Source: Escherichia phage PH1061. Taken from it: a stretch of 39,968 nucleotides of DNA. Both the position numbers and the translations under genes were made by a program. Shown in pieces: positions 1 to 39,968 of the stretch (position 1 is its first letter; the number at the start of each line of letters is the position of its first letter). Below the pieces are notes generated by a model. That model did no database searches. It was not told the DNA's origin and saw only the letters and a list, made by a program, of their open reading frames with translations. The stretch lies in sequence record OQ680138.1. One strand, written 5' to 3'.

Positions 1-111
1 ACTCATGGTGACTTCAGTCATCTTCACGCTAACCCACTGATATGCAAGTAATTCTGACTTAACTATCACTATAGGACTCAAGGTCTAAGACTCCAAGTGA
101 AAGACCAAAGA
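1..111. repeat. Window-end overlap: 1..111 is identical to 39858..39968 (circular-permutation or assembly wrap); includes the 3' end of the last early ORF (1..51) and a phage promoter
   Basis: Direct comparison of the first and last lines of the window: actcatggtgacttcag...caagtgaaagaccaaaga is present at both ends. Confidence 0.95.
57..79 (+). promoter_or_regulatory. Phage RNAP promoter, consensus TTAACTATCACTATAGGA, +1 G near 74, upstream of the RNAP gene
   Basis: Matches the 11-copy consensus in the unique genome; duplicate of 39914..39936. Confidence 0.7.
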
Positions 112-148
112 GACTTTAAGTGAAAGACTAATAACAAGGACTTTAAGT

Positions 149-2830
149 ATGAGCGTCATCTCCATTGACAAACACGACTTCTCCGATGTGTCGAACGCCA
201 TTGAGCCGTTTAACCTGCTGGCTGACCACTACGGGCAGGACCTTGCAGTCAAACAGCTTCAGCTTGAGCATGAGGCATACACTGAAGGCGAGCGACGTTT
301 CATCAAGAACCTTGAGCGCCAGACTGAGCGCGGGGAACTGGCAGACAATCAGGTCGCCAAGCCTTTGATGCAGACTCTGGTTCCTAAGATTGCACAAGCC
401 GTCAAGGAGTGGCACGAAGGCCAAGACGGGAAGCTGTCAACCTCTCGTCCGAGCGTAGCGTTCACCATGTTGAGCACTGAAGAGAAGGCCGTAAAGGACC
501 GCTCTCTGCGCATCTCCTGTGAGTCTGCTGCGGTTATCATACTGAAGGTCATCCTCTCCAAGCTGGTCAAGCCTGAAGGGATACCGATTACACCGATGGC
601 CTCAGCGATAGGCCGCACACTTGAGGATGAAATACGCTTCGGTCGCATCCGTGACAAGGAGCAGGAGCACTTCAAGAAGGCGATAGCTGAGAACCTGAAC
701 AAGCGAGCTGGTGCATCCTATAAGAAAGCCTACATGCAAGCGGTCGAGACCTCCATGCTGGAGCAAGGACAATTGGAAGACGCGTGGGGTACTTGGAGTC
801 CGACAGAGGCTGTCCACGTTGGCATCAAGATGCTCGAGATTGTCATCCAGTCAACACAACTGGTCGAGCTTAAGCGGTACGGTGCTGGTAATGCAGCGGC
901 TGACGTAGAGATGGTCCACCTGTCAGACTTCTGGGTCAAGAAGATGGCACAACGTGGATTCAGCCTTGCGGGTATCGCACCAGTTTATCAGCCTTGCGTC
1001 GTTCCTCCTAAGCCGTGGATGGGTGTCGTAGGTGGTGGGTACTGGGCCAAAGGTCGCAGACCGTTACCAATGATTCGCTTAGGGTCCAAGTCTGCGTTGG
1101 CACGTTATGAAGACGTGTACATGCCTGAAGTCTATGACGCTGTTAACATCATCCAGAATACACCTTGGAAAGTGAACAAGAAGGTACTGGACGTGGTGAA
1201 CATGGTCGAGAAGCTGAACAACACGCCTATTGATGACATCCCTCAAATGGAACCACTGAAGCCTGAGGACTATGCAGGTGAGACCGAGGAGGAACTCAAG
1301 GCATGGAAGAAGGCTGCGGCTGGTATCTATCGCCGCGAGAAGGCCAGACAGTCACGCAGGTTGTCACTGAGCTTTATCGTTAACCAAGCGAACAAGTTCT
1401 CTCAGTTCAAGGCCATCTGGTTCCCGTACAACATGGACTGGCGAGGTCGTGTCTACGCTGTACCGATGTTCAACCCTCAGGGTAACGACATGCAGAAGGG
1501 TCTCCTGACTCTGGCAGTCGGCAAGCCCATTGGTGCTGATGGTTTCAAATGGCTGAAGGTCCACGGTGCAAACTGTGCGGGTGTCGATAAAGTCACCTTC
1601 GAGGAGCGCATCAAGTGGGTGGAAGACCACCACGACAACATCATGGCTACTGCTAAGGCACCGATGGACAGCATTGAGTGGTGGGGAAAGTTAGACTCTC
1701 CGTTCTGCTTCCTTGCGTTCTGCTTCGAGTATGCTGGAGTAATGCATCACGGCCTGTCTTACTCATGCTCGCTACCGATAGCGTTCGATGGGTCCTGCTC
1801 TGGGATTCAGCACTTCAGCGCGATGCTGAGGGACCACGTAGGCGGACATGCAGTGAACTTAACGCCGTCTGGTCAGGTGCAGGACATCTACCGTATAGTC
1901 TCAGACCGTGTGTCAGACCAGTTGAAAGAGTTATTACTGAGCGGTACGGACGACGAGCTGGTGACCGTAGAGGACAAGAAGACTGGGGAAATCAGCGAAC
2001 GCCTGAAGCTTGGGACCAAGAGTCTTGCGCGTCAGTGGCTGGCCTACGGTATGTCACGCAAGGTCACTAAGCGTTCTGTCATGACTCTGGCCTATGGGTC
2101 GAAAGAGTACGGCTTCGCAGACCAAGTATACGAGGATATCGTGATGCCAGCGATTGACTCAGGGTCTGGCGCTATGTTCACTGAACCAAGCCAAGCGTCT
2201 CGCTTCATGGCTAAGATGATTTGGGAAGCTGTGAGTGTGACAGTAGTTGCTGCGGTTGACGCGATGAAGTGGCTTCAAGGTGCTGCCAAGTTGCTGGCTG
2301 CTGAAGTGAAGGACAAGAAGACTGGTGAAATCCTGAAGCCTTGCCTTCCGGTACACTGGGTAACACCTGATGGTTTCCCGGTCTGGCAGGAATACCGCAA
2401 GAAGGATACCACACGTTTGAACCTGATGTTCTTAGGGTCATTCAACCTTCAGCCTACAGTCAACAAAGGCACGAAGAAAGAGCTGGACAAGCACAAGCAG
2501 GAGTCAGGAATTAGCCCGAACTTCGTCCACTCACAAGATGGTAGCCACCTCCGCAAGACTGTAGTTCACACGCATCGCAAGTATGGCGTGATGTCATTCG
2601 CAGTGATTCACGATAGCTTCGGGACCATCCCGGCTGACGCTGAGTATCTGTTCCGTGGTGTCCGTGAGACGATGGTAGAGACCTACCGCGACAACGATGT
2701 GCTGCTTGACTTCTACGAGCAGTTTGAATACCAGCTTCACGAGAGCCAGCGCGACAAGTTGCCTGAGCTTCCGAAGAAAGGTAAACTGAATATTGAAGAC
2801 ATCTTGTCTTCAGACTTTGCATTCGCTTAA
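149..2830 (+). CDS. 1: Single-subunit DNA-directed RNA polymerase (T7 gene 1 homolog), 893 aa
   Basis: Near-colinear with T7 RNAP from memory; motifs DGSCSGIQHFSAMLRD, HDSFGT and C-terminal FAFA present. Confidence 0.97.
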   Translation: MSVISIDKHDFSDVSNAIEPFNLLADHYGQDLAVKQLQLEHEAYTEGERRFIKNLERQTERGELADNQVAKPLMQTLVPKIAQAVKEWHEGQDGKLSTSRPSVAFTMLSTEEKAVKDRSLRISCESAAVIILKVILSKLVKPEGIPITPMASAIGRTLEDEIRFGRIRDKEQEHFKKAIAENLNKRAGASYKKAYMQAVETSMLEQGQLEDAWGTWSPTEAVHVGIKMLEIVIQSTQLVELKRYGAGNAAADVEMVHLSDFWVKKMAQRGFSLAGIAPVYQPCVVPPKPWMGVVGGGYWAKGRRPLPMIRLGSKSALARYEDVYMPEVYDAVNIIQNTPWKVNKKVLDVVNMVEKLNNTPIDDIPQMEPLKPEDYAGETEEELKAWKKAAAGIYRREKARQSRRLSLSFIVNQANKFSQFKAIWFPYNMDWRGRVYAVPMFNPQGNDMQKGLLTLAVGKPIGADGFKWLKVHGANCAGVDKVTFEERIKWVEDHHDNIMATAKAPMDSIEWWGKLDSPFCFLAFCFEYAGVMHHGLSYSCSLPIAFDGSCSGIQHFSAMLRDHVGGHAVNLTPSGQVQDIYRIVSDRVSDQLKELLLSGTDDELVTVEDKKTGEISERLKLGTKSLARQWLAYGMSRKVTKRSVMTLAYGSKEYGFADQVYEDIVMPAIDSGSGAMFTEPSQASRFMAKMIWEAVSVTVVAAVDAMKWLQGAAKLLAAEVKDKKTGEILKPCLPVHWVTPDGFPVWQEYRKKDTTRLNLMFLGSFNLQPTVNKGTKKELDKHKQESGISPNFVHSQDGSHLRKTVVHTHRKYGVMSFAVIHDSFGTIPADAEYLFRGVRETMVETYRDNDVLLDFYEQFEYQLHESQRDKLPELPKKGKLNIEDILSSDFAFA

Positions 2831-2845
2831 CAGGAGAAGAAGTAT

Positions 2846-3076
2846 ATGTCAATGAAACTTGTAGCACACAATAGAGTATTCAACGATGGGTCGGGAACTT
2901 GCCATGTAGAGCTGACTTATAAGGATTTAGTCATTCTCCGAGACAGATTACAAGCTGGTGTGACCGGGTGGATTCAACCTAACGAGTACAGCCTTATAGC
3001 CTCGATTGATGAAGTGCTTAAAGCGTGGATGGAAGACGAGCGCACTCAATATCCGTCATTCCCTATTATTAGATAA
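2846..3076 (+). CDS. Hypothetical protein, 76 aa, between gene 1 and gene 1.1 (no T7 counterpart recalled)
   Basis: ORF with RBS AGGAGAAGAAGTAT before ATG; tightly packed after RNAP. Confidence 0.6.
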   Translation: MSMKLVAHNRVFNDGSGTCHVELTYKDLVILRDRLQAGVTGWIQPNEYSLIASIDEVLKAWMEDERTQYPSFPIIR

Positions 3077-3086
3077 GGAGAGAGTT

Positions 3087-3657: not shown

Positions 3658-3915
3658 ATGGGCCGACTTTATAGTGGCAACCTAAACGCTTTCAAAGCAG
3701 CGTGGAACAGGCTCTATCAGTTAGACTTCTGCGTGATACAGCAGGATTGGTACGATGCGCATCTTCGGAAAGAGTGCATGAGACTTCAAGTCGAGGACCG
3801 AGCTGGTAACATCTTCGCGCTTAAGACCTTCGCACACCGCGATGAAGACGTACTGTACAACACTGCAACAGGCTTCCTTAACTGTCTCGCTAACCAACTA
3901 GACACATGGAGATAA
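3658..3915 (+). CDS. 1.2: Gene 1.2 protein (inhibitor of host dGTP triphosphohydrolase), 85 aa
   Basis: N-terminus MGRLYSGNLNAFKAA matches T7 gp1.2; same length as T7 (85 aa). Confidence 0.85.
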   Translation: MGRLYSGNLNAFKAAWNRLYQLDFCVIQQDWYDAHLRKECMRLQVEDRAGNIFALKTFAHRDEDVLYNTATGFLNCLANQLDTWR

Positions 3916-3919
3916 CACA

Positions 3920-4942
3920 ATGACAACTATTAAAACTAACCCGCACCGCGCTGTAGATTACTCTGAGTCTGGTATTAAGAAGGCTCTGGAAGCTGCCGGG
4001 TCTCTAGAAGCTGAAGTGAAGTACGATGGTGTACGGTTGAACCTCCCGGTGCTTCGAGAGGGTGAGACCTATTGGTTAAGCCGTGAGTCTAAACCACTGC
4101 CAGCACTTGAGTGGATGAACTCTGAGTTAGGCAATGCGTGGACTCAGGCTGACTGGAGGTGGTTCCTTCGTCAAGCTGGCTATGAAGGTATCGGCCTTAT
4201 GATTGACGGCGAGGTCATGGTCAAAGGTGTTGACTTTAATACGTCCTCAGGTCTCATCCGAACGAAGTGGCTCAAGCCTAACAACGAGGAGTTCGCTGAA
4301 TGCTATCCGGGCCGTGGCAAGAAGGTCCCGTTCTGGGTAGCCAGGTCACGACTTCAGGTTGTGGTATATGGCGTTGTCGATATGACAACCATAGCAGACC
4401 CGAAAGCCGAAGGTCCTATCCATAGCGTCACACGCCTGAAGGCCGAAGCTATCGTCCCTCTCCTCCAGAAATACTTCCCGGAAATCGACTGGGTATTATC
4501 TGAGAGTCATACAGTGTTTAGCTTAGACGAGCTTACTGACTTGTATGAGAAGAAGAGAGAAGAGGGCCATGAGGGTCTGGTGGTTAAAGACCCACTTGGA
4601 CGCTGGAAGCGTGGCAAGAAGTCAGGTATGTTCAAGATGAAACCAAGCGAAGAGGCGGACGGTCACGTTGTGCGCCCTGTGTGGGGTACGGATGGCCTAG
4701 CCAACGAAGGCATGGTCATCGGATTTGACGTGATGCTCGAGAACGGGATGGAGGTCTCCGCAACTAACATTAGTCGCGCCCTTATGTCTGAGTTCACCGA
4801 AAACGTTAAGTCCGACCCTGATTATTATAAAGGCTGGGCCTGCCAGATTACCTACATGGAGGAGACACCAAGTGGCTTACTACGGCATCCCTCGTTCGAC
4901 CGGTGGCGTGGAACTGAGGACGACCCTACGGTCAAGATTTAA
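3920..4942 (+). CDS. 1.3: ATP-dependent DNA ligase, 340 aa
   Basis: Adenylation motif KYDGVR (EVKYDGVRLN); position after gene 1.2 as in T7. Confidence 0.9.
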   Translation: MTTIKTNPHRAVDYSESGIKKALEAAGSLEAEVKYDGVRLNLPVLREGETYWLSRESKPLPALEWMNSELGNAWTQADWRWFLRQAGYEGIGLMIDGEVMVKGVDFNTSSGLIRTKWLKPNNEEFAECYPGRGKKVPFWVARSRLQVVVYGVVDMTTIADPKAEGPIHSVTRLKAEAIVPLLQKYFPEIDWVLSESHTVFSLDELTDLYEKKREEGHEGLVVKDPLGRWKRGKKSGMFKMKPSEEADGHVVRPVWGTDGLANEGMVIGFDVMLENGMEVSATNISRALMSEFTENVKSDPDYYKGWACQITYMEETPSGLLRHPSFDRWRGTEDDPTVKI

Positions 4943-4952
4943 AGCAGACAGG

Positions 4953-5333
4953 ATGGCTCCCTCTGGAGTCTCCAACCTAAACGGTAGACATCTTGGTTAT
5001 AGACGAAAGGATGGGTACTGGATTCTAAGTACGACAAAGGGCCAACTGCTGGCCCACCGAGTAGTCTGGGAACTAACCCACGGCCAGATACCAGAAGGGA
5101 TGGTGATTGATCATATCAACCGGGACCCTTCGGATAACAGGATTGAGAACCTCAGGTGTGTGACTCAGGCGGTGAACCTCACTAACGTTCCAACCCGTAG
5201 TCACTGCCAATCTGGAGAGAAATACGTTCAATACCAGAAATCAACTGGTCGCTGGCAACTGAGGATAAAGCGTAAGTCATACGGTACGTTCGATACCATA
5301 GCCGAGGCGGTAGCCTTAAGAGATTCATTATAA
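4953..5333 (+). CDS. HNH homing endonuclease with C-terminal AP2-type DNA-binding domain
   Basis: Motif DHINRDPSDNRIENLR followed by an AP2-like segment GEKYVQYQKSTGRWQLRIKRKSYGTFDTIAEAVALRD; start set at the first ATG after the ligase stop (track ORF begins inside ligase). Confidence 0.8.
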   Translation: MAPSGVSNLNGRHLGYRRKDGYWILSTTKGQLLAHRVVWELTHGQIPEGMVIDHINRDPSDNRIENLRCVTQAVNLTNVPTRSHCQSGEKYVQYQKSTGRWQLRIKRKSYGTFDTIAEAVALRDSL

Positions 5334-5339
5334 CGTCAA

Positions 5340-5378
5340 CCCAGTGGTCTCATGACTGCTGGGTTTCTCTGCTTTGTG
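5340..5378 (+). terminator. Rho-independent terminator (early terminator TE analog): 10-bp stem CCCAGUGGUC / GACUGCUGGG, loop UCAU, then U-rich tail
   Basis: Read from sequence; located after ligase/HNH as T7 TE follows gene 1.3. Confidence 0.65.
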
Positions 5379-5411
5379 CTATCAATCTATCATCTGGGCC
5401 ACCAGGCTGAC

Positions 5412-5434
5412 CCTAAGCTATCACTATAGGACAA
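5412..5434 (+). promoter_or_regulatory. Phage RNAP promoter variant, TAAGCTATCACTATAGGA, +1 near 5429
   Basis: One mismatch to consensus at about -13. Confidence 0.7.
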
Positions 5435-5462
5435 CCATAACTTCGACCTAAGGAGGCCGACC

Positions 5463-5723
5463 ATGTTTAAGAACTTAATGTTCAATCGTTATACCAGTAC
5501 ATTCCACCTGTCTCACAACCCGTTCGCTTGCATTAAGCGCAACGAGAAGCTGGGCTACTTCGGGAAGGCCGTTAAGCTGTCACCTACAGTCTTCGCTCTG
5601 ATTACTCCGGGTAAAGCTGAAGAGGCTAGCCAGAAGCGTGAGACCAACGTACCTGTGGTCTACACCAAGTGGCCTCGTGTTCGCCTGTTCATTGAGTTCG
5701 TGAAGGAGGTGGTCAATGCTTAA
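5463..5723 (+). CDS. Hypothetical protein, 86 aa (gene 1.6 position)
   Basis: ORF with RBS AAGGAGG; positional analogy only. Confidence 0.6.
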   Translation: MFKNLMFNRYTSTFHLSHNPFACIKRNEKLGYFGKAVKLSPTVFALITPGKAEEASQKRETNVPVVYTKWPRVRLFIEFVKEVVNA

Positions 5724-6159
5724 GGTTGGGGATACAGTTGAATATGTTGGACCTGTTAAAGCCTACATGGGACTCTCCTGTGGCAAGGTGATTATGGTTA
5801 GAATGGGGCACATAGTTGTTGTTAAGTGGCCCTGTTCACCTGAACCAGTCATTCACTCCTCTAGTGCCTTAAGTATTACCAATCAGGAGCAGGCTGAGAC
5901 GCCAACCATAGGTCAGGAAGACAGCGTCCGTAAGCCGTCACACTATCAGGTCTTTGACGGTGTGGAATCCATTGGGATTATCGCTCGGTCCATGACTGTC
6001 AGTGAGTTCCGTGGTTTCTGCATGGGTAACGTCCTGAAGTATCGACTCCGAGCTGGTAAGAAGTCAGAGCTGGCGACTATGGAGAAGGACCTGAACAAAG
6101 CAGCCTTCTATCAGGAGCTGTTCGACCTGCATAAAGGTAAGTGCTATGACTCCAAGTAG
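5716..6159 (+). CDS. 1.7: Gene 1.7-like protein (T7 gp1.7 nucleotide kinase family), 147 aa, with a divergent N-terminal part
   Basis: C-terminal KPSHYQVFDGVESIGIIARSMTVSEFRGFCMGNVLKYRLRAGKKSELATMEKDLNKAAFYQELF matches the T7 gp1.7 C-terminus as recalled. Confidence 0.75.
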   Translation: MLKVGDTVEYVGPVKAYMGLSCGKVIMVRMGHIVVVKWPCSPEPVIHSSSALSITNQEQAETPTIGQEDSVRKPSHYQVFDGVESIGIIARSMTVSEFRGFCMGNVLKYRLRAGKKSELATMEKDLNKAAFYQELFDLHKGKCYDSK

Positions 6160-6237
6160 CTGGTGCTTTAGACAGTGGGTCTCAACCGGGAATGTGGACT
6201 ACCTGTCCATGTACCATATGTGGAAGGAGAAAGGACT

Positions 6238-6396
6238 ATGAGCCTTGAAGAGAAGAAATACATCGTGGAGCTTGAGGGTCGCGTTCAGTCCTTCGAGGTT
6301 CCGGTGTACGCAAAGTCTCTTGAAGAGGCTACCCTGAAGTCCCAAGAGTATGAGGACGCTGGGTTTGTGGTCGGACGAATCCGTCCTGAGACCTAA
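6238..6396 (+). CDS. 2: Gp2-like inhibitor of host RNA polymerase, 52 aa
   Basis: [14 protein letters not shown] matches T7 gp2 SFEVPIYAETLDEA; strong RBS GGAAGGAGAAAGGACT; the track ORF's GTG start at 6175 is less likely. Confidence 0.8.
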
Positions 6397-6414
6397 ACTA
6401 TCACTGTAGGACAG
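6392..6414 (+). promoter_or_regulatory. Phage RNAP promoter variant (phi2.5-like), CTAAACTATCACTGTAGGA, +1 near 6409
   Basis: One mismatch (-3 A to G); overlaps the gp2 stop codon. Confidence 0.65.
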
Positions 6415-6453
6415 ACGTCCAGTTCGTAACTTTAAATTAGGAGATTTACACCA

Positions 6454-7152
6454 ATGGCTAAAGAGCAACTGAAGACTTTCACCACCCCGGTAGCTGGTAC
6501 CGTTGAGCCTTACGCATGGCTGAACAAAGCAGATACCAAGTTTAACGAGCGTGGTGAGCATAAGGTTAACCTGACTTTCAGTCTGGGTGACCCGAAGGTC
6601 CGTAAGATGATTGATGTCTTACAGAAGATTCACGACGATGCGTATGCGAAAGCACTCGCAGACCACGAGAAGAACCCACCTAAGGTTCAGCGTGGCAAGA
6701 AGCCTATTGAACCACGAGAAGGCGACATGCCGTGGATTGAGAATGGTGACGGTACTGTTACCCTGAAGTTTAAATGCTTCGCGTCTTACCTGAAGGATGG
6801 TAAGTCAGAGCCTATCGTATTACGGTTCTACGACACCGATGCTAAGTTAATCAGTGACGTCCCGAATATTGGCGCTGGCTCAAAGCTGAAGGTCAAGTTT
6901 AAAGTCGTGCCGTTCAAGTGGAACGCTGCGACTGGTGCAAGCGTTAAGCTCCAGCTTGAGTCCTGCCTTCTGGTAGAACTGAAGGAATGGAAAGGTGATG
7001 GTGCTGGTGGAGATGGTGGCTGGGGCGATGATGAAGACCTCGGTACTGGCTACAAAGCGTCAACCGATGGTGACTTCGGGTCTGGTGACTTCGGTGACGA
7101 TGGTTCCGAAGGTGGTGATGGCTCTAACTCTGGTGGCGATTACGACTTCTAA
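6454..7152 (+). CDS. 2.5: Single-stranded DNA-binding protein, 232 aa, acidic C-terminus ending DF
   Basis: Same length as T7 gp2.5; conserved blocks PKVQRGKKPIEPREGDMPW and GASVKLQLES; acidic tail with terminal Phe. Confidence 0.93.
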   Translation: MAKEQLKTFTTPVAGTVEPYAWLNKADTKFNERGEHKVNLTFSLGDPKVRKMIDVLQKIHDDAYAKALADHEKNPPKVQRGKKPIEPREGDMPWIENGDGTVTLKFKCFASYLKDGKSEPIVLRFYDTDAKLISDVPNIGAGSKLKVKFKVVPFKWNAATGASVKLQLESCLLVELKEWKGDGAGGDGGWGDDEDLGTGYKASTDGDFGSGDFGDDGSEGGDGSNSGGDYDF

Positions 7153-7604
7153 TGGCCCAATGGTCTGCAAAACGGGGGCACTCTGTGGGTGCCTACCGCT
7201 CTGGACTTGAAGCCAAGAACCAGCAGTGGCTGGAACAGAACGGCGTCAAAGCGGAGTACGAAAGCCATTATATCAACTATGTGATTCCGGCTTCCGACCA
7301 CAAGTACACACCAGATTTTATCCTTCCTAACGGTATCATCGTAGAGACCAAAGGTATCTTCGATAGTGATGACCGTAAGAAGCACCTTCTGATACGAGAA
7401 CAGCACCCAGAGTTAGACATCCGGTTCGTGTTCTCAAGTTCCCGCTCAAAGTTATACAAAGGGTCTCCGACCACGTATGGCGCATGGTGCGAAAAGAACG
7501 GCTATAAGTATGCCGATAAGTTCATCCCGGTTGAGTGGCTGCGAGAGGCGACTGTACGTCTGCCTTCAGGCCTACTCATTCCCAAGAAGAAAGGAGTTAA
7601 GTAA
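7152..7604 (+). CDS. 3: Endonuclease I (Holliday junction resolvase), 150 aa
   Basis: Colinear with T7 gp3 (149 aa) from memory; YTPDFILPNGIIVETKG block. Confidence 0.88.
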   Translation: MAQWSAKRGHSVGAYRSGLEAKNQQWLEQNGVKAEYESHYINYVIPASDHKYTPDFILPNGIIVETKGIFDSDDRKKHLLIREQHPELDIRFVFSSSRSKLYKGSPTTYGAWCEKNGYKYADKFIPVEWLREATVRLPSGLLIPKKKGVK

Positions 7605-8420: not shown

Positions 8421-8422
8421 TA

Positions 8423-9417: not shown

Positions 9418-9435
9418 ACTATCACCTTAGGGATG
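9413..9435 (+). promoter_or_regulatory. Phage RNAP promoter variant (phi4-like), CTAAACTATCACCTTAGGGA
   Basis: Two mismatches at -4/-3 relative to consensus; located upstream of primase-helicase. Confidence 0.5.
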
Positions 9436-9482
9436 GGACCACGAGTCCTGTCCCTCTGTTCGCATTTGTGATTAAGGAGTGA

Positions 9483-11186
<1,704 letters not shown>

Positions 11187-26872: not shown

Positions 26873-26876
26873 CATA

Positions 26877-31696: not shown

Positions 31697-31714
31697 ACTA
31701 TCACTATAGGAAAC
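31692..31714 (+). promoter_or_regulatory. Phage RNAP promoter (phi17-like), CTAAACTATCACTATAGGAA
   Basis: Consensus match; overlaps the gp16 stop. Confidence 0.85.
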
Positions 31715-31760
31715 GGGAGGCGCTACCATAGGTCTCCCTTTAAATCACAAAGGAGGCATA

Positions 31761-33881
31761 ATGTCCACTATTACACAATTCCCTTCAGGCAACACTCAGT
31801 ACAGGATTGAGTTCGACTACCTAGCCAGAACGTTTGTTGTTGTTACGCTGGTGAATAGCTCTAACCCTACCCTGAACCGTGTACTGGAAGTTGGTCGAGA
31901 TTACCGATTCCTTAATCCAACGATGATTGAGATGTTGGTTGACCAATCAGGTTTCGACATCGTTCGTATTCACCGTCAGACTGGAACTGACTTAGTAGTA
32001 GACTTCAGGAATGGCTCAGTGTTGACAGCTAGTGACCTGACCAATGCAGAGCTTCAGGCTATCCATATTGCAGAAGAAGGTCGAGACCAAACTGTTGACT
32101 TAGCGAAGGAATATGCCGATGCTGCTGGTAGCTCTGCTGGCAACGCTAAGGATAGCGAGGACGAAGCACGACGAATCGCTGCGACTATCAAGGCAGCTAG
32201 TCTAGTTGGTTATATTACCCGTCGCTCCTTCGAGAAAGGCTTCAACGTTACAACATGGAACGAGGCCCTGCTATGGGAAGAGGATGGCGATTATTACCGC
32301 TGGGATGGTACGCTTCCAAAGAACGTTCCTGCTGGCTCAACTCCTGAAACGTCTGGTGGCATTGGGTTAGGAGCGTGGGTTAGTGTCGGCGATGCTACAT
32401 TGCGCAATCAAATATCTGACCCTGACGGTGCCACTAAGTACCCAGCGTTACAAATTGCGCGTTGGCGTGATGAAGGAGATGTGCGCGGTTGGGGTACTGG
32501 CGAAGAAGGTTTTAACGCCGCGATGTCTGAGTTGTCAGCTAATGGGGGTGGCACACTATTCGTTAATGAGGATATACTCTTTACATCCCTTCCTATTATG
32601 CACAAAGAGCATGTAACTGTGCGATGGAACGCTGTAGCTAAAGTTAAGTCAGGCTTGACTGCTGAATATGCTTATATAATGGATGGTGGAGCAGATACTC
32701 CTGCATACAACAGTTCCCATCACTTTACTAAAGCTAACAAAACAAATTGCTATAACCTCTTCTTAGTAGCAGAGGATTATACAACAGGTATTTCTGCTAA
32801 AGGTGTTTGTGTGCGCCATTGCTACGAATGGACTTACGAAGGGGGGGCAATTATCGGGTTTAATAATGGAGGTTTCTACGAGACTAACAACTACGAAGGA
32901 AAAGCCAGCAAATTCACGATGGTTGTAGCTAATACAAGACTTGATAATTCTGTAGGATTTGAAAGTAATTCAACTGACAGTTGGTTTAGTGAACTTTCTC
33001 CAGTTGGTTATTCAATTGGTCTAAAGTTTAATAAGAGCGCAAATGTGGTTGATAAGGCACACCCCTGGGGTAATACAGTTAACAATCTTGTAGGCGCAAT
33101 GGGGCAGATGAATGTTGGTATTGTAATTACAGAGAACGCAGGTTTTTCTACATATTCAAATATTATTCTTGATACTCCGGTAAGGAAGAACACCAATAAG
33201 ACACCATCTAGAAGCAATGGTGGGGTTGGTGTAATTTGTGATGCATGGGACTGCGTTCTTGATGGTATTCTTGTATTACCGTCCAGACATGACACAGTAG
33301 CAAAAAGTACCTTACCAATGATCACCACTATGCAAAGATCAACAATAAAAGATTTTCAGGTTTCGGGGGAGCAGTATGTAACAGACATATGGATTTCATT
33401 TGAAAACAATTCAGGGATAGCCAGGAATCACGTTTCAGGTTATGGGTATGCTGAAAAAATGCGTACAGGAATGACCTTTGGACCCAATTCAGGGGCTGTT
33501 CTTGCAAGTGCTGATGGTGTAACGATGTCGAGCCAAACTCTGACCTCTGGAATATGGTATAACACATTAAGTTTTTCCATAGCTACAACAATAACAGCTA
33601 TACCGTCAGCAACAGGTGATGTAATTGTTAATATAACTCCTGCTTATGGCGTTAAATCTGGATTCGGTGGTACAGTTAAGGGTGGCATGTACGCATTTTA
33701 CTACGCCACAGCAAACTCAGCCAAACAATTATATGATGTTTCCTTAGAGGTAGTGTCAGATAATACCGCTAAGTTCTTATTGACATTCATAGATGGAACT
33801 ACTCGGTACGCACACTGGACAGATGTATCTAACGGTTCAGCAAGAGCCATAAGTATATCAGGAGTCATTAATATAAAATAA
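31761..33881 (+). CDS. 17: Tail fiber/tailspike, 706 aa: T7 gp17-like N-terminal adaptor domain fused to a non-T7, AT-rich C-terminal receptor-binding module
   Basis: N-terminal FDYLARTFVVVTLVN...DYRF...LQAIHIAEEGRD matches the T7 gp17 N-terminus; downstream part has no T7 similarity and a clear GC drop from about 32560. Confidence 0.9.
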   Translation: MSTITQFPSGNTQYRIEFDYLARTFVVVTLVNSSNPTLNRVLEVGRDYRFLNPTMIEMLVDQSGFDIVRIHRQTGTDLVVDFRNGSVLTASDLTNAELQAIHIAEEGRDQTVDLAKEYADAAGSSAGNAKDSEDEARRIAATIKAASLVGYITRRSFEKGFNVTTWNEALLWEEDGDYYRWDGTLPKNVPAGSTPETSGGIGLGAWVSVGDATLRNQISDPDGATKYPALQIARWRDEGDVRGWGTGEEGFNAAMSELSANGGGTLFVNEDILFTSLPIMHKEHVTVRWNAVAKVKSGLTAEYAYIMDGGADTPAYNSSHHFTKANKTNCYNLFLVAEDYTTGISAKGVCVRHCYEWTYEGGAIIGFNNGGFYETNNYEGKASKFTMVVANTRLDNSVGFESNSTDSWFSELSPVGYSIGLKFNKSANVVDKAHPWGNTVNNLVGAMGQMNVGIVITENAGFSTYSNIILDTPVRKNTNKTPSRSNGGVGVICDAWDCVLDGILVLPSRHDTVAKSTLPMITTMQRSTIKDFQVSGEQYVTDIWISFENNSGIARNHVSGYGYAEKMRTGMTFGPNSGAVLASADGVTMSSQTLTSGIWYNTLSFSIATTITAIPSATGDVIVNITPAYGVKSGFGGTVKGGMYAFYYATANSAKQLYDVSLEVVSDNTAKFLLTFIDGTTRYAHWTDVSNGSARAISISGVINIK

Positions 33882-34155: not shown

Positions 34156-34350
34156 ATGATTGAGTTAGACTTCAAGAATGAGGCCCTTAAAGCCTCTCCT
34201 ATCGTCGGGACCGCTGCGGCTGATGGTGCCAGTCGGTTCTTCTTCGGACTTACACTGAACGAATGGTTCTACGTTGCAGCTATCGCGTACACCGTTGTCC
34301 AGATTGGTGTGCTAGTCTACAAAACGATTAAAGGAGGTGGTAAAACATGA
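34156..34350 (+). CDS. 17.5: Holin (T7 gp17.5-like), 64 aa
   Basis: SPIVGTAAADGASRFFFGLTLNEWFYVAAIAYTVVQIG matches the T7 holin; one TM segment. Confidence 0.92.
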   Translation: MIELDFKNEALKASPIVGTAAADGASRFFFGLTLNEWFYVAAIAYTVVQIGVLVYKTIKGGGKT

Positions 34351-34610
34351 CTCAGATGGACTTAGAGAAGTTCCTCTTAATGCTAGATACTGAACGTGCT
34401 CGACTCATGCTGCAAGACCTGCGGGATGACTCTAAGCGTTCACCTCAGCTTTACAACGCCATTGAGAAGCTACTGGCTCGTCACAACTTCGTGTTAAGTA
34501 AGGTGTCTGTGGACGAGAAGACGCTGGCTGATATGGAGGCCCTGAACGCAGAGTACGATAAGGTGCTTTCAGCGACTGAGGATAATGACACCGGGTATGG
34601 CGTTCAATAA
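34347..34610 (+). CDS. 18: Terminase small subunit (gp18-like), 87 aa
   Basis: RSPQLYNAIEKLLARHNF matches T7 gp18 RSPQLYNAINKLLDRHKF. Confidence 0.9.
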   Translation: MTQMDLEKFLLMLDTERARLMLQDLRDDSKRSPQLYNAIEKLLARHNFVLSKVSVDEKTLADMEALNAEYDKVLSATEDNDTGYGVQ

Positions 34611-34621
34611 GTGTTAGACTC

Positions 34622-34648
34622 AAGGTCATTACTATATGTAGTGGCCTT
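34622..34648 (+). promoter_or_regulatory. RNase III-type processing hairpin (R18.5-like): 11-bp stem AAGGUCAUUAC / GUAGUGGCCUU
   Basis: Third paralog of the conserved hairpin family; position matches T7 R18.5. Confidence 0.65.
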
Positions 34649-34711
34649 TATGGTTAACACTAACTAGTGGAGTAGACTCTACGTGAAATCTGATAAACCG
34701 GGAGGGCAACT

Positions 34712-35161
34712 ATGCTCGAATTTTTAAAGAGAGCGGCTCCGTGGTTACTTGCAGCAGTGATGTTTGCTGGTGGCTACCACACCGCTAACAATAAGTGGGA
34801 GGCTAAGGTCAATGCAGAATACACCTCGAATCTTAAGGCATCGGAAGATACAAGGCTTGCTGTCCAAGCTGAAGTCAACAAAGTGTCCAAGCGGTTTCAG
34901 GACGAAATGTCCTCGCTGGAAGGCAGCACTGATAGGATTATTGCTGACCTTCAGTCTGACAATAAGCGGCTGCTCATCCGAGTCAAACCTACGAGTGGAA
35001 CCACGCAAAGTGACGGTCGATGCGTCATTGATGGTTACGCCGAACTTGACGAACGAGATGCTAAACGTCTTATCGCCATCGGAGTGAAAGGGGACAAGTG
35101 GATTAAGGCACTTCAGGACACTGTGAGGGCCTTGCAGCAAGATAAGGAGGTGACGCATTGA
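34712..35161 (+). CDS. 18.5: Inner-membrane spanin (Rz-like, gp18.5), 149 aa
   Basis: N-terminal TM segment then coiled-coil periplasmic region; position after gene 18. Confidence 0.85.
34812..35087 (+). CDS. 18.7: Outer-membrane lipoprotein spanin (Rz1-like, gp18.7) embedded in the +1 frame of gene 18.5
   Basis: Lipobox LTISGC; [12 protein letters not shown] and [18 protein letters not shown] match T7 gp18.7. Confidence 0.85.
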   Translation: MQNTPRILRHRKIQGLLSKLKSTKCPSGFRTKCPRWKAALIGLLLTFSLTISGCSSESNLRVEPRKVTVDASLMVTPNLTNEMLNVLSPSE

Positions 35162-36921
35162 GTAAAGACTTAGTGGCGCGTCAGGCGCTAATGACTGCCC
35201 GTATGAAGGCAGACTTCGTGTTCTTCCTGTTCGTTCTATGGAAAGCTCTGTCACTCCCAGTCCCGACTCGCTGTCAGATTGACATGGCGAAGAAACTATC
35301 GGCTGGGGACAACAGGCGCTTCATCCTTCAGGCGTTCCGTGGTATCGGGAAGTCATTCATTACGTGTGCCTTCGTGGTCTGGAAGCTATGGAACAACCCA
35401 GACTTGAAGTTCATGATTGTGTCGGCCTCAAAGGAACGAGCCGATGCGAACTCCATCTTCATCAAGCGAATCATCGACCTCATGCCTCAGCTTCAGGAAC
35501 TCAAGCCTAAGCAGGGACAGCGAGATGCGGTTATCAGCTTCGACGTTGGGCCAGCCAAGCCAGACCACTCACCTTCGGTTAAGTCCGTGGGCATCACTGG
35601 TCAGTTGACTGGTAGTCGTGCTGACATCCTGATTGCCGACGACGTGGAGGTTCCGAACAACTCAGCGACTCAGGCTGCACGAGACCGTCTGTCAGAGCTT
35701 GTGAAAGAGTTCGATGCTATCCTGAAGCCGGGAGGTACAATCATTTATCTGGGCACTCCTCAGAACGAGATGACCCTGTACCGTGAGTTGGAAGGACGTG
35801 GATACACCACTACTATCTGGCCTGCTCGTTATCCACGTGATAAGAAGGACTGGCAGTCTTACGGCGACCGTCTGGCACCGATGCTTCAGGCAGAGCTGGA
35901 AGAGGACCCTGAGTCCTTCTACTGGCGTCCGACTGATGAAGTACGCTTCGATGATACGGACCTGAAGGAGCGTGAGCTGTCATATGGTAAAGCTGGCTTC
36001 GCTCTACAGTTCATGCTTAACCCGAACCTGAGTGATGCCGAGAAGTACCCTCTGAAGCTCCGTGACCTTATCGTAGCCGACTTGGACCCAGCGTCCAGTC
36101 CAATGGTCTACCAATGGTTGCCGAACCCTCAGAACAAGCGTGAGGACGTTCCTAACGTTGGACTCATGGGTGACTCATACCACACGTATCAGACTGTAGG
36201 TTCTGCCTTCAGCTCGTACACCCAGAAGATTCTGGTCATTGACCCTAGTGGTCGTGGTAAGGATGAAACTGGCTATGCGGTACTGTATCAGCTCAACGGC
36301 TATATCTTCGCTATGGAAGTTGGTGGTATGCGTGGTGGCTATGAAGACTCTACGCTGGAAGCCTTGGCTAAGATTGGTCGTAAGTGGAAGGTCAACGAAT
36401 ACGTCATTGAGGGTAACTTCGGTGATGGTATGTACCTTGAGTTATTCAAGCCTGTAGCGGCCCGTGTCCATCCTGCTGCTGTAACTGAAGTGAAGAGCAA
36501 GGGTCAGAAGGAACTCCGCATCTGTGACGTTCTGGAGCCTATCATGGGGTCTCACCGACTTATCGTCAACGCTGCTGCTATCGTCCAAGACTACCAGACA
36601 GCCTCTGACAAGGATGGTGTGCGTAACCCTATCTACTCTCTCTTCTATCAGATGACCCGTATCTCTCGCGAACGTGGAGCCTTGGCACACGATGACCGAC
36701 TTGATGCGCTGGCTATCGGTGTACAGTTCTTCGTTGAGTCGATGGCTAAGGATGCCAACAAAGGCGAACGTGAAGTCACTGAGGAGTGGCTGGAGGAACA
36801 GATGGAGAACCCACGGAAAGGCTTCGAGTCCATCCACACTGAGTTCTGGGACAATGGGGTCCGGGTAACTCACAATACGGACGACGAGCTGGGACTAGGG
36901 TCCTACGTTACGTTCCACTAA
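35158..36921 (+). CDS. 19: Terminase large subunit, 587 aa, apparent TTG start
   Basis: Size of T7 gp19 (586 aa); RBS AAGGAGGT 6 nt before TTG; no in-frame ATG near the start. Confidence 0.93.
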
Positions 36922-36930
36922 CTGAGTGAA

Positions 36931-36979
36931 TAACTATAGGTGAAAGCTGCATGAATACGCAGTTAGTAACCTATAGTTA
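36931..36979. repeat. Perfect 11-bp inverted repeat TAACTATAGGT / ACCTATAGTTA with 27-nt spacer, immediately after the terminase gene
   Basis: Read from sequence; arms contain the promoter-core-like TATAGG on both strands. Confidence 0.8.
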
Positions 36980-37015
36980 CTACCAGTCTAACCTACTGTT
37001 TTACAAAGAGTTTGG

Positions 37016-37038
37016 ACTTAACTATCACTATAGGGAAG
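37016..37038 (+). promoter_or_regulatory. Phage RNAP promoter (phiOR-like), CTTAACTATCACTATAGGGAAGA
   Basis: Consensus match; lies between genes 19 and 19.5 as phiOR does in T7. Confidence 0.85.
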
Positions 37039-37217
37039 ACCCCCGGTTACTTATAGTATTACTGTAGTGAATATACATATGCAGACTTTATGCAAGACCT
37101 TAGGAGGCAGACTCCGAGTTCTTACCTAAGGCTTGCACCGATGGAAGGAGGTGATATTAATCATAATACCTCCAATACAGATAGTCACCGACCATAGATA
37201 CAGGAGGTATGTAGCAT

Positions 37218-37376
37218 ATGGCAAAGACCAAAGCTGTACTTAAAGCTCTGGCGACCAATCGAGCTACATACAGGTTTCTTGCTGCTGTTCTACTTGCTGC
37301 TGGCGTTACTGCTGGAAGTCAGTGGGTCGGGTGGGTCGAGACTCTCGTATGTTCTCTGGTCTCTCAGTGTAATTAA
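37218..37376 (+). CDS. Small hydrophobic protein, 52 aa (gene 19.5 position)
   Basis: Strong RBS AGGAGGT before ATG; predicted TM segment; below track cutoff. Confidence 0.6.
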   Translation: MAKTKAVLKALATNRATYRFLAAVLLAAGVTAGSQWVGWVETLVCSLVSQCN

Positions 37377-37437
37377 CGCAATCATGGTAACGATTCATGA
37401 AAGGAGGTAGTATGATCGGTTATGGCGAAGGCTGAAG

Positions 37438-37581
37438 ACCTAAGGTCAGTTCATAGCTGACGCTACTCTACTGACCTTAGCTACTGTAGTCAAGGACCTA
37501 AAGTAACACTATAGCAGTCCATGGTCTATCCCAAGGTCTCTGACCTACGGTATTGCCTACAGTAGCAGGGACTCCTAAGGA
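37438..37581. repeat. Array of degenerate heptamers (CCTAAGG, CCTAAAG, CCTACGG, CCTACAG) preceding the predicted right terminal repeat
   Basis: Read from sequence; analogous to T7 CCTAAAG short-repeat arrays flanking the terminal repeat. Confidence 0.6.
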
Positions 37582-37618
37582 GGGACGATGAGTTTTGGAC
37601 CAAAAGTTTGAGACCACA

Positions 37619-37825
37619 TCTCACAGTTCAAGAACCTCAAGTCTCCCCATAGGCCCTCTTTAAGTCCAGACCAAAGGCCCTACCCCAGTCTATCATAAGG
37701 TTAGACCGATGGTCAAGACTTCAGGTCAACGATAGGTCTAGGCTATGGCTGGAGGTCAGGACGATAGGTTGGGACTATGGGTCTTCTTTGAGTCTCTATC
37801 TGTATAGTGTTATAGTATAACATTA
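37619..37825. repeat. Predicted genome left end and terminal-repeat region (collapsed to one copy); begins TCTCACAGTT...
   Basis: TCTCACAG...CCCCATAGG... resembles the T7 left terminus (TCTCACAGTGTACGG...CCCCCATAGGGGG); exact repeat length not determinable from a single copy. Confidence 0.55.
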
Positions 37826-37828
37826 CGT

Positions 37829-37930
37829 CCTACAGCCTACAGTCTCACTAACCTACAGTATCAACCATAAGACACCAACACCTACAGTCATAGACCTACA
37901 GTTAATAGACACAAGGCTATAGACTTACGG
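37829..37930. repeat. Array of at least 5 CCTACAG heptamers plus a CTTACGG variant following the predicted terminal repeat
   Basis: Read from sequence. Confidence 0.7.
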
Positions 37931-38013
37931 TCAAAGACATGTTAGTCAAAGACTATATCCTCTTACACCATGAGGCCGACGATAGCTTAATCAATATTAT
38001 TTAAGATTACCTA

Positions 38014-38043
38014 TTGACTACAGGTCTAGACTATGGCTTAATA
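38014..38043 (+). promoter_or_regulatory. Host sigma70-type early promoter (A1-like): -35 TTGACT, about 17-18 bp spacer, -10 CTTAAT/TTAATA
   Basis: Read from sequence; position as T7 A1. Confidence 0.5.
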
Positions 38044-38154
38044 GCTTCCGTCAACACGACACGGCACCAACCGGATAGTGAAGACGCCGGGTCATCCCGG
38101 TTAAGTAGACAGCCTGATAAGTCATACGAACAACAGGCAGATGACAGAAAGTAG

Positions 38155-38184
38155 TTGACAAGCAGTAACGACTTAACGTAGTAT
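38155..38184 (+). promoter_or_regulatory. Host sigma70-type early promoter (A2-like): -35 TTGACA, 18-bp spacer, -10 TAGTAT
   Basis: Upstream block GGATAGTGAAGACGCCGGG...AGTAGACAGCCTGATAAGTC resembles the T7 A1-A2 region (CAACCGGATAAGTAGACAGCCTGATAAGTCG). Confidence 0.6.
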
Positions 38185-38205
38185 GCACCACATCAAGTCG
38201 TTACG

Positions 38206-38232
38206 ATTGATAAGCAGACAGAAAGTGTTAGC
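38206..38232 (+). promoter_or_regulatory. Possible third early promoter (A3-like), -35 TTGATA with suboptimal -10
   Basis: TTGATAAGCAGACAGAAAG resembles the T7 A3 -35 context; -10 unclear. Confidence 0.3.
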
Positions 38233-38333
38233 TTCCGGAGTTTGAAGTATAAGCGCCCGGGTGTTGTAACGGGTCTGCGCCGCTCTTTAACAATCTGGAT
38301 AAACTCTTAATGTGCGCCGATAGCGACTAACTA

Positions 38334-38365
38334 CAGGGTCTTTGAGTCTACATCTGAAGGCCCTG
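38334..38365 (+). promoter_or_regulatory. R0.3-like RNase III hairpin (9-bp stem CAGGGUCUU / AAGGCCCUG) downstream of the conserved CTCTTTAACAATCTGG box
   Basis: CTCTTTAACAATCTGGATAAA matches T7 CTCTTTAACAATCTGGTAAATAG upstream of gene 0.3. Confidence 0.55.
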
Positions 38366-38413
38366 ACTGATAGTCACTAACACACACACAAACAACTTTG
38401 AGAGGATATAACT

Positions 38414-39277: not shown

Positions 39278-39382
39278 ATGAGTACTGCAATCATCTGGAC
39301 CATCTCAGGCTTCGTAGCGTGGGGAATGTTTACTCTGGTCAGCAAGCTTCCGGTCATGACTCAACTCTTCTGGGGTTTATGA
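39278..39382 (+). CDS. Small hydrophobic early peptide, 34 aa (MSTAIIWTISGFVAWGMFTLVSKLPVMTQLFWGL)
   Basis: Strong RBS TAGGAG 7 nt before ATG; single predicted TM helix. Confidence 0.5.
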   Translation: MSTAIIWTISGFVAWGMFTLVSKLPVMTQLFWGL

Positions 39383-39582
39383 CTATGAGTCTTGCACTAT
39401 TGATAGCCATATGCTATGGACTTATCGCCTACGTGCTGGGGAGAGACATCAACAAAGCGCGTAAGGTCTACAAATTCAACTATGTACGTCTGGGTCGCTG
39501 GACTGTACGTCAACCTAACGGGCGATTCATGCGCAACTTAGCGAACGTCTGGGATATAGCAACTCTTGGGAGCAAACTGTAA
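39379..39582 (+). CDS. Small early membrane protein, 67 aa
   Basis: ATGA overlap with the preceding peptide; hydrophobic N-terminus SLALLIAICYGLIAYVLG; the track's TTG start at 39262 is less likely. Confidence 0.5.
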   Translation: MTMSLALLIAICYGLIAYVLGRDINKARKVYKFNYVRLGRWTVRQPNGRFMRNLANVWDIATLGSKL

Positions 39583-39908
39583 TGAGTAAATCTTATGGCA
39601 TCAACTTGGTCCATGCATTTGACGCAGACCTTAATCTGCTTTCAGCACTAGCTACAGGCTACCGTCACGGGACCTCAAGTCACACCATTCGTCAACAGCA
39701 GGAGCGTGACCGTGTACTACAGGCACGACTACGGGCCGAGGGACATAAGGCCGAGCTGATGTGTCTGGCGTATGGTGGACGACCAATCACCGACGATGGT
39801 AAACTTCTGGTCTCAGGCTGGAAGGCGATAGACCAACGGTCAACCATCAAGCACACGACTCATGGTGACTTCAGTCATCTTCACGCTAACCCACTGATAT
39901 GCAAGTAA
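39582..39908 (+). CDS. Hypothetical early protein, 108 aa, at the position of T7 gene 0.7; no protein-kinase motifs
   Basis: TAATG coupling with the previous ORF; the 3' end is duplicated at window positions 1..51. Confidence 0.6.
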   Translation: MSKSYGINLVHAFDADLNLLSALATGYRHGTSSHTIRQQQERDRVLQARLRAEGHKAELMCLAYGGRPITDDGKLLVSGWKAIDQRSTIKHTTHGDFSHLHANPLICK

Positions 39909-39913
39909 TTCTG

Positions 39914-39936
39914 ACTTAACTATCACTATAGGACTC
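39914..39936 (+). promoter_or_regulatory. Phage RNAP promoter upstream of the RNAP gene (same element as 57..79)
   Basis: TTAACTATCACTATAGGA. Confidence 0.7.
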
Positions 39937-39968
39937 AAGGTCTAAGACTCCAAGTGAAAGACCAAAGA

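Follow-up and report, generated by a model that had tools for sequence, protein, structure and literature searches.

Position of the physical ends and origin of the 111-bp end overlap in the genome record of the K1F-like Escherichia phage PH1061

The genome record of Escherichia phage PH1061 (OQ680138.1) begins and ends with the same short sequence, and the question is whether this repeat marks the physical ends of the virion DNA or the point at which a circular sequence was cut. The record was analyzed over its full length of 39,968 nucleotides, referred to here as the window. A preliminary description made from the letters alone had regarded it as a complete, T7-like genome that was rotated or assembled as a circle, with a 111-bp overlap of its ends. 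Comparison of the two ends bears out the overlap: bases 1-111 are exactly identical to bases 39858-39968, and no longer or approximate match of prefix and suffix was found. An exact match of 111 nt cannot have arisen by chance. When one copy is dropped, 39,857 bp of unique sequence remain. In the self-comparison of the whole window, the check that the preliminary description had proposed, the sole long direct repeat is this end pair with a spacing of 39,857. The remaining repeat families are all 49 nt or shorter and consist of promoter copies and two hairpin sites.

Copy 1 of the overlap (1..111, + strand) contains the last 51 nt of a 108-aa open reading frame, a predicted K1F-type promoter (59-76) and the first part of the gene 1 leader. 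Copy 2 (39858..39968, + strand) is identical, and one of the two copies is redundant. Position 1 of the window falls in the 108-aa ORF at 39582-39908, 51 nt ahead of its stop codon, and this ORF is the gene directly upstream of the RNA polymerase (RNAP) gene. The 3' end of a gene is indeed cut here, as had been described. This gene is the last one before gene 1, but by the T7 definition the early genes do not end with it, because the T7 early class extends through gene 1.3.

The 111-bp sequence was located in the genomes of three relatives and is present in one copy in each, at positions 2418-2528 of K1F, 2690-2797 of EPr2 and 3206-3310 of EFA-1. When the junction is closed with a single copy, the alignments with EPr2, EFA-1 and K1F contain 0 gaps over 523-611 nt. 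Two sequence features of a circular-assembly overlap are therefore present, namely exact identity of prefix and suffix for a sequence that is single-copy in relatives, and collinearity that is restored on trimming. In K1F, EPr2 and EFA-1 the homologous site is internal and holds the only copy, and the overlap is therefore not the terminal repeat. We infer that it is a redundancy of the record without biological meaning, probably produced by an assembler, although 111 is, to our knowledge, not a default k-mer size attributable to a particular assembler; the rotation itself may be due to an assembler or a depositor. The opposite reading takes the 111 bp as a genuine direct terminal repeat (DTR) and the window as written as the linear DNA of the virion, whose ends would lie shortly before the RNAP gene. 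Real DTRs do appear as short exact repeats at contig ends, and 111 bp falls inside the size range of short DTRs. However, the records of K1F, EPr2 and EFA-1 end elsewhere, and a genome end at this position would fall within the coding sequence of the ORF at 39582-39908. These observations, together with the location of the K1F-type repeat described below, make a genuine 111-bp DTR extremely improbable.

The sequence homologous to the DTRs of K1F, EPr2 and SH3 is located inside the window as a single (collapsed) copy at 37619..37797 on the + strand. The K1F record opens, at its left end, with the same 60 nt as bases 37619-37678, and the starts of the SH3 and EPr2 records are nearly the same. 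The region as a whole is 93% identical to the K1F DTR and 91% identical to the EPr2 DTR, an internal match that further contradicts ends at the 111-bp overlap. Exact terminal repeats of 178, 179 and 184 nt are found in the records of K1F, EPr2 and SH3, respectively, and because these lengths differ the right boundary in the window is only bracketed, at 37796-37802. EPr2 was used cautiously for the ends since its record contains four copies of the repeat in an unusual layout. For the segment 37560-37860, alignment with the junction reconstructed for K1F and SH3 shows the order right unique end, DTR and left unique end, and the 34 nt just left of 37619 match the bases that precede the right-hand repeat of K1F and SH3.

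The ends of SH3, SH4 and SH5 were previously fixed by run-off sequencing of virion DNA, which gave repeats of 183-190 bp (PMC4925675). The terminal repeat of K1F is cited there as 179 bp (PMC4925675), and the K1F record itself contains an exact repeat of 178 nt. Exact matches to two published run-off primers are present in the window, that for SH3 (GCCCTACCCCAGTCTATCAT) at 37677-37696 (PMC4925675) and that for SH4/SH5 (CTGCTGTTCTACTTGCTGCT) at 37282-37301 (PMC4925675). From this homology we infer that the physical left end, and the site of cutting, is at window position 37619 (TCTCACAGTTCAAG...). With a DTR length taken from the relatives, the virion DNA should be approximately 40,035-40,041 bp, about 180 bp more than the 39,857 unique bases, because the record carries one copy of the terminal repeat.

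The packaging enzymes support this position. The small terminase gp18 is 100% identical to that of K1F (87/87) and 52% identical to that of T7; the large terminase gp19 is 99% identical to that of K1F and 65% identical to that of T7. A cutting site different from that of K1F is thus not expected, which again opposes a DTR at the 111-bp overlap. The same terminases bear on headful packaging, in which the virion DNA would be circularly permuted and terminally redundant without fixed ends. An assembly that closes to a circle is what headful phages give, but it is also produced by a short DTR that has collapsed. The phage encodes a T7-type gp18/gp19 terminase that hardly differs from the K1F enzyme, and the ends of close relatives are fixed according to run-off sequencing (PMC4925675). 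The terminal sequence TCTCACAG... is common to K1F, SH3, EPr2 and T7, and T3 is one base off in the first eight. Headful packaging is therefore very unlikely.

The DTR copy is flanked by a unique region on each side. The right-end region (36922..37618, + strand) contains a predicted phiOR-like promoter at 37018-37035 and a gene 19.5-like ORF of 52 aa at 37218-37376, which differs from SH3 gp46 by one residue and matches phrog_2193. The left-end leader (37798..38413, + strand) is non-coding, with no + strand ORF of at least 60 aa, and aligns with the left end of K1F. It is where the host-RNAP early promoters would be expected. The best sigma-70 match in this leader is found at 38155-38184 (TTGACA-18-TAGTAT, 10/12). 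The scan of the terminal and early region returned 6 such sites versus 4.2 expected, which is the chance level, and no intrinsic terminator was found in the same region.

The geometry of the record may be explained as follows. The virion DNA would be linear with a short DTR of approximately 180 bp at both ends. The gp18/gp19 terminase would cut concatemers at the 37619 junction and double the repeat there. Being identical, the two DTR copies would merge into one during read assembly, and a sequence with one copy would close into a circle of 39,857 bp. The record would be this circle opened at an arbitrary base, 148 nt ahead of the RNAP start codon, and closed with a second copy of its first 111 bp, an effect of printing a circular path from an assembly graph. 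What was observed directly is the end overlap, the occurrence of the 111-mer only once in each relative, the location of the DTR homologue in one copy, and the collinearity of the genes. With these in hand, the window very probably holds the whole genome of a lytic podovirus of the K1F-like kind, obtained as a circular assembly that was cut arbitrarily and with its true ends internal near 37619.

T7-type replication proceeds through concatemers with one DTR between genome units. Replicative concatemers would yield the identical sequence, and the circle may thus reflect concatemeric DNA sequenced from within cells, for example those of an infected culture or a metagenome, and not collapse of the virion DTR. 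The window has the exact layout of such a junction, with the right unique end, one DTR and the left unique end. The contig is the same in both cases and the two are indistinguishable by sequence, but the positions of the ends are unaffected. We consider a concatemer source unlikely and retain the collapse of the virion DTR as the preferred explanation.

Rotation of the window to a start at 37619 gives 15 collinear + strand matches to K1F that extend from 1->1 through 40035->39704. The re-rotation that had been called for is thus needed, and after it the gene order is collinear with T3 and T7 as well as with K1F, as the proposed gene-order check required. Prior to comparison, annotation or deposition, the 111 bp should be trimmed and the sequence restarted at 37619; to represent virion DNA, one extra copy of the approximately 180-bp repeat is needed at the right end. 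If the overlap is misread as the terminal repeat, both the ends and the genome length are wrong (39,968 versus approximately 40,036). The record of phage ZH4 (OM355495) has the same kind of geometry, being likewise rotated and also reverse-complemented. A query from terminase to ocr was covered to at least 80% by a single match in 57 phage records. The match is internal among the matches listed, and therefore many deposited relatives are rotated like this record.

All identified homologues (blastp against K1F and T7) are on the + strand in T7 order, every essential T7 gene class is present, and the cumulative GC skew rises monotonically along the genome. The early region comprises an ocr-like gene 0.3 (38414-38923), a 51-aa ORF (38923-39078), a 0.6-like ORF whose true start is probably internal (39262-39582) and the 108-aa ORF (39582-39908), and the genes of this stretch upstream of RNAP belong to PHROG families 2568, 5058, 2385 and 7066. 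Gene 1 (149..2830) encodes a full-length single-subunit RNA polymerase with 96.9% amino acid identity to K1F gp1 and 62.8% to T7 gp1. The DNA metabolism block (3658..15002) contains homologues of 1.2, ligase 1.3, 1.6, 1.7, 1.8, gp2, SSB 2.5, endonuclease I, amidase 3.5, primase/helicase (9486-11186), DNA polymerase (11421-13643), 5.5, 5.7 and exonuclease 6, together with three free-standing HNH genes at 4872, 8040 and 8853. The virion block (15213..33881) contains 6.5, 6.7, a 7-like gene, 7.3, portal (16390-17958), scaffold, capsid (19060-20103), tail tubular A and B, a DUF3850 ORF, gp13, gp14, gp15, an HNH gene (26877-27326), gp16 (27308-31696) and the tailspike gp17 (31761-33881). Holin 17.5, gp18 (34347-34610), Rz/Rz1 and gp19 (35158-36921) form the lysis and packaging block (34156..36921). 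The run from RNAP through replication, structural and terminase genes and the terminal region to the early genes is as previously claimed. The genome can be called complete in its gene content, although only one copy of the terminal repeat is present in the record.

The gp16 protein contains a 173-aa insert, a charged, K/E/A-rich segment, that is absent from K1F. The long form is found in 19 other phage records, including ZH4 and ST31. An intein or homing element was considered for this insert and rejected: no nuclease or Hint match was obtained, and the Pfam search was empty across gp16.

A location in a bacterial chromosome, as a prophage, plasmid or genomic island, has next to no probability. 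The entire window is collinear with K1F and carries no flanking non-phage DNA, as the view of a whole phage rather than an island had held. No tRNA was found in the window and no integrase among the identified genes, and the genes are laid out on a single strand with phage-specific promoters. Moreover, 749 phage records match the first 25 kb; among the matches listed these are of the T7-family type and approximately 38-41 kb in length. A search of Rfam at gathering thresholds gave no match.

The K1F-type promoter consensus TAAACTATCACTATAGGA has 11 matches in the window versus 0.01 expected by chance, corresponding to 10 unique sites. All of the predicted promoters are on the + strand upstream of genes. 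Nine are found at 3379, 5414, 6394, 15131, 17956, 18944, 23486, 31694 and 37018, just upstream of genes, and parallel T7/T3 phi1.1, 1.5/1.6, 2.5, 6.5, 9, 10, 13, 17 and OR. The tenth, at 59-76 in the gene 1 leader, is 86 nt upstream of the RNAP gene. K1F has the same promoter consensus and the same count of 10. In T7 and T3 the promoter sequence differs, and no cognate promoter is found directly upstream of gene 1. A cognate promoter ahead of the gene for its own RNAP is common to the genus and could provide positive feedback on polymerase synthesis. In the stretch from the 59-76 promoter to gene 1, a candidate RNase III-type hairpin was rejected, as its fold was no better than that of shuffled sequences (z = -0.51).

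The single-subunit RNAP, the conserved one-strand gene order and the phage-specific promoter set are traits of the Autographiviridae and Studiervirinae. Phages of these groups also have linear virion DNA with fixed ends and a short DTR, whose homologue the window carries once. The product of identity and aligned fraction is 0.847 for ZH4, 0.832 for EFA-1, 0.824 for EPr2, 0.812 for K1F and 0.775 for SH3, and 0.28 for T7/T3. By ICTV conventions, a genus corresponds to at least approximately 70% nucleotide similarity over the genome length and a species to at least 95%. The similarity to Kayfunavirus exceeds the genus value, and by sequence the phage is a member of the family Autographiviridae, subfamily Studiervirinae, genus Kayfunavirus. 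The label T7-like holds for the gene order and is narrowed to this genus, with K1F at approximately 93% over 88% and T7/T3 at approximately 70% over 40%. Of the genomes that were compared over their full length, ZH4 comes closest (identity 0.937 over 0.904); EFA-1, EPr2, PE3-1 and ST31 are other unclassified Kayfunaviruses alongside it. No described member of the genus in the phage collection of August 2025 has a similarity of at least 95%, and for the records ranked highest by coverage x identity the values are 94% x 93.8% (bases 1-25000) and 84% x 91.6% (rest of the window). Because the best whole-genome product is 0.85 (ZH4), the phage is probably a new Kayfunavirus species.

Residues 261-706 of gp17 are encoded by low-GC DNA and are 95% identical in amino acid sequence to Phapecoctavirus ECO340P1. 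Among Kayfunavirus records this C-terminal module is found in pO91 only (87% aa), whereas ZH4 and the other unclassified Kayfunaviruses have different tailspike C-terminal modules. There is about an even chance that the phage is a new species whose receptor-binding module (gp17 261-706) was recently exchanged with a Phapecoctavirus, a lineage unrelated to its own, and which also has a cognate promoter 86 nt before the RNAP gene. In its biology the phage conforms to a well-known group, which this genome extends by a probable further species carrying a swapped tailspike.

In comparison with K1F (NC_007456), the type species of Kayfunavirus, 34,965 nt align in the 15 collinear blocks, with an identity of 0.926 over 0.877. 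Gene order agrees over the whole length, and the RNAP, TerL and TerS are 97%, 99% and 100% identical, respectively. The endosialidase C-terminus of K1F is not present in gp17 of the window, and the common part is limited to residues 1-260. The DNA polymerase of the K1F record is a joined CDS with an interruption of approximately 600 bp that contains an HNH ORF, whereas the gene in the window is uninterrupted. The 1.2 homologue, the four HNH genes and the DUF3850 ORF have no match among the K1F proteins, and the left leader of K1F is approximately 300 bp longer. T7 (Teseptimavirus) and T3 (Teetrevirus) have the same plan of early genes, RNAP, DNA metabolism, virion and packaging on one strand, but only about 40% of the window genome aligns with theirs, at approximately 70% identity, and their gene 0.7 kinase is absent from the window. 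The DTR of T7 begins TCTCACAG and that of T3 begins TCTCATAG, with lengths of 160 and 231 nt, respectively, versus approximately 180 in the window.

The window begins and ends with the same 111 bases (1-111 and 39858-39968), leaving a unique length of 39,857 bp. No longer or approximate prefix/suffix match was found in the window. When the whole window was compared with itself, this pair, spaced by 39,857 nt, was the sole long direct repeat; no other repeat family exceeds 49 nt, and these families consist of promoter copies and two hairpin sites. The identity of the two ends, noted in the preliminary description, is real and chance is excluded. The window opens within a 108-aa ORF (39582-39908), with 51 nt left to its stop codon; this ORF lies directly upstream of the RNAP gene (149-2830). 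The cut gene had been called the last early gene; it immediately precedes gene 1 but does not end the early class as defined in T7. Its product belongs to phrog_7066, a family of unknown function. An unnamed counterpart of the same length lies at 2411-2737 in EPr2, and none of the annotated K1F or T7 proteins is homologous to it.

The 111-mer was located in three related genomes, where it occurs as a single copy at the homologous internal site upstream of gene 1: at 2418-2528 in K1F (97% identity), 2690-2797 in EPr2 (99%), and 3206-3310 in EFA-1 (93%). Elsewhere in these genomes only a promoter core of 16-21 nt recurs. When the window ends were joined with one 111-bp copy, alignments of 523-611 nt to the same three genomes were obtained with no gaps. 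A genome end at window position 1 would cut a coding sequence. Because the 111-mer is internal and single-copy in relatives, the joined junction is gapless, and the end falls within a coding sequence, the overlap is interpreted from these comparisons as redundancy from printing a circular assembly. Comparison with relatives speaks strongly against placing a terminal repeat at the window ends, in agreement with the earlier view of the overlap.

The physical ends were sought by comparison with the records of relatives. The first 60 nt of the K1F record recur unchanged at positions 37619-37678, and the starts of the SH3 and EPr2 records are nearly identical to the window from 37619 onward. The T7 and T3 records open with the related TCTCACAG and TCTCATAG, respectively. 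The exact terminal repeats in the K1F, SH3, EPr2, T7, and T3 records are 178, 184, 179, 160, and 231 nt in length, and window 37619-37797 matches the K1F repeat at 93% identity and the EPr2 repeat at 91%. The ends of SH3, SH4, and SH5 were fixed by primer run-off sequencing on virion DNA (183-190 bp), and the K1F repeat is quoted as 179 bp (PMC4925675). The concatemer junctions of K1F and SH3 were rebuilt as right unique end, repeat, and left unique end; window 37560-37860 aligns along each of these parts, and the 34 nt that precede the repeat match as well. From the terminase stop (36921) to the ocr-like gene (38414), no plus-strand ORF reaches 60 aa. From these alignments, the left physical end is placed at 37619, and the repeat is taken to extend rightward to 37796-37802. 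Only one copy of the repeat sequence is present, so the window appears to carry a collapsed single copy. The virion DNA is predicted to be 40,035-40,041 bp in length (39,857 plus 178 to 184). In the EPr2 record (Providencia phage, OM256482), the 179-bp repeat is annotated four times (1-179, 501-679, 40583-40761, and 41083-41261) and positions 180-500 correspond to DNA of the right end (37291-37618 in the window); the phage may have a tandemly duplicated junction, or else the record is misassembled.

A rotated sequence of 40,036 nt was constructed by starting at 37619 and adding one copy of the repeat. It aligns with K1F in 15 blocks, all on the plus strand and strictly ordered from 1 (K1F 1) to 40035 (K1F 39704), and it is also collinear with T3 (16 blocks) and T7 (18 blocks), as the proposed T7-like gene order predicted. 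Rotation moves the window start to coordinate 2240, the ocr-like gene to 796, and the RNAP gene to 2388. The description of the genome as complete holds for its content, but the second copy of the repeat is missing. The terminase-to-ocr region (36800-38500) was covered to at least 80% by a single match in 57 phage records, and the match is internal in the ones listed; many deposited relatives are therefore rotated likewise. The ZH4 record is both rotated and reverse-complemented.

TerS (34347-34610) is identical to its K1F homologue at 87 of 87 residues and TerL (35158-36921) is 99% identical. By analogy with T7 and from this near-identity, the genome would replicate via head-to-tail concatemers with one repeat per junction, and terminase would cut the junction with duplication of the repeat, leaving a copy at both ends of the virion DNA. 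Identical ends cause read assemblies to close into a circle; here the source of the circle may be either collapsed virion ends or concatemer reads.

All plus-strand ORFs were compared with the annotated T7 and K1F proteins using blastp, and all homologues lie on the plus strand in T7 order. The early and transcription genes are ocr-like 0.3, gene 1 (RNAP), 1.2, ligase 1.3, 1.6, 1.7, 1.8, and gp2; those of DNA metabolism are SSB 2.5, endonuclease I, amidase 3.5, primase/helicase, DNA polymerase, 5.5, 5.7, and exonuclease. The virion genes comprise 6.5, 6.7, 7.3, portal, scaffold, capsid, tail tubular A/B, gp13-16, and gp17, and the lysis and packaging genes are holin, TerS, Rz/Rz1, and TerL. 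A gene 19.5-like ORF of 52 aa is found at 37218-37376. Like K1F, the window lacks the gene 0.7 kinase; it has no tRNAs, and the genes identified include no integrase.

The genome was compared with 50,697 phage records using megablast, and hundreds of podovirus genomes of 38-41 kb were matched. The best matches to the first 25 kb are E. coli Kayfunavirus phages (93-95% identity over ~90%); for the last 15 kb the values are 91-95% over 72-84%. The products of whole-genome identity and aligned fraction are 0.847 for ZH4, 0.832 for EFA-1, 0.824 for EPr2, 0.812 for K1F, and 0.775 for SH3, versus 0.28 for T3 and T7. On these values phage PH1061 is assigned to the genus Kayfunavirus, a refinement of the initial T7-like label, which is correct for gene order although T7 itself is distant. 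Phage species are conventionally set at the 95% level (ICTV practice), and PH1061 falls below it against the genomes compared. It is probably a new species with a swapped tailspike, its novelty limited to that. Overall, this is an ordinary, well-understood case, in which the complete genome of a phage from a known genus is given as a rotated record that carries redundancy from assembly. EFA-1 (MT350292, "Enterococcus phage", flagged UNVERIFIED_ORG) and PV615262 ("Acinetobacter phage vB_Aba_01KA") are Kayfunaviruses ~93-94% identical to the window, and their host labels look doubtful.

Ten unique copies of TAAACTATCACTATAGGA were found versus 0.01 expected by chance, upstream of genes at sites parallel to T7/T3 promoters. 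A variant promoter-like site, AAACTATCACCTTAGGGA (9409-9433), lies ~55 nt upstream of the primase/helicase gene and has CCTTAGG where the others have CTATAGG. One K1F-type promoter (59-76, equivalent to 39916-39933) is inside the overlap, 86 nt upstream of the RNAP start codon, and is kept at the same offset in K1F, EPr2, EFA-1, and SH3. In contrast, T7 and T3 have no cognate promoter from phiOL to the end of gene 1. A promoter upstream of its own RNAP gene could permit positive feedback on RNAP synthesis. Two 49-nt sequences, 3397-3445 (just after the promoter at 3379) and 34614-34662 (just after gene 18), are 84% identical and form strong hairpins (z = -4.2 and -5.1); at the corresponding places, the T3 annotation has RNase III sites R1.1 and R18.5.

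Several features differ from K1F. Gp16 (27308-31696) is 1462 aa in length versus 1295 aa in K1F, and residues 691-863 (29375-29900) form a 173-aa insert in place of six K1F residues. The insert is charged, K/E/A-rich, and coiled-coil-like by eye, and recurs in 19 other phage records with hosts of several genera, among them ST31, ZH4, NC-A, and phages of Klebsiella, Enterobacter, and Kosakonia. The tailspike gp17 (31761-33881) begins with a T7-type adaptor and a TSP1/Gp66-type N-terminal domain, but residues 261-706 (32541-33881) are unrelated to the K1F endosialidase. At the amino acid level this segment matches ORF 00114 of Phapecoctavirus ECO340P1 (151 kb) at 95% identity, Kayfunavirus pO91 at 87%, and one phage each of Salmonella and Hafnia at 68-70%. 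It falls in no Pfam or PHROG family, and its DNA has the lowest GC of the genome (0.434). The receptor-binding C-terminal module looks like a tailspike exchange between unrelated phage lineages. Four free-standing HNH_3 endonuclease genes (4872-5333, 8040-8420, 8853-9209, and 26877-27326) are related to T7 genes 3.8 and 7.7 and match no K1F protein, and the DNA polymerase gene is without the ~600-bp HNH-containing interruption of the K1F record.
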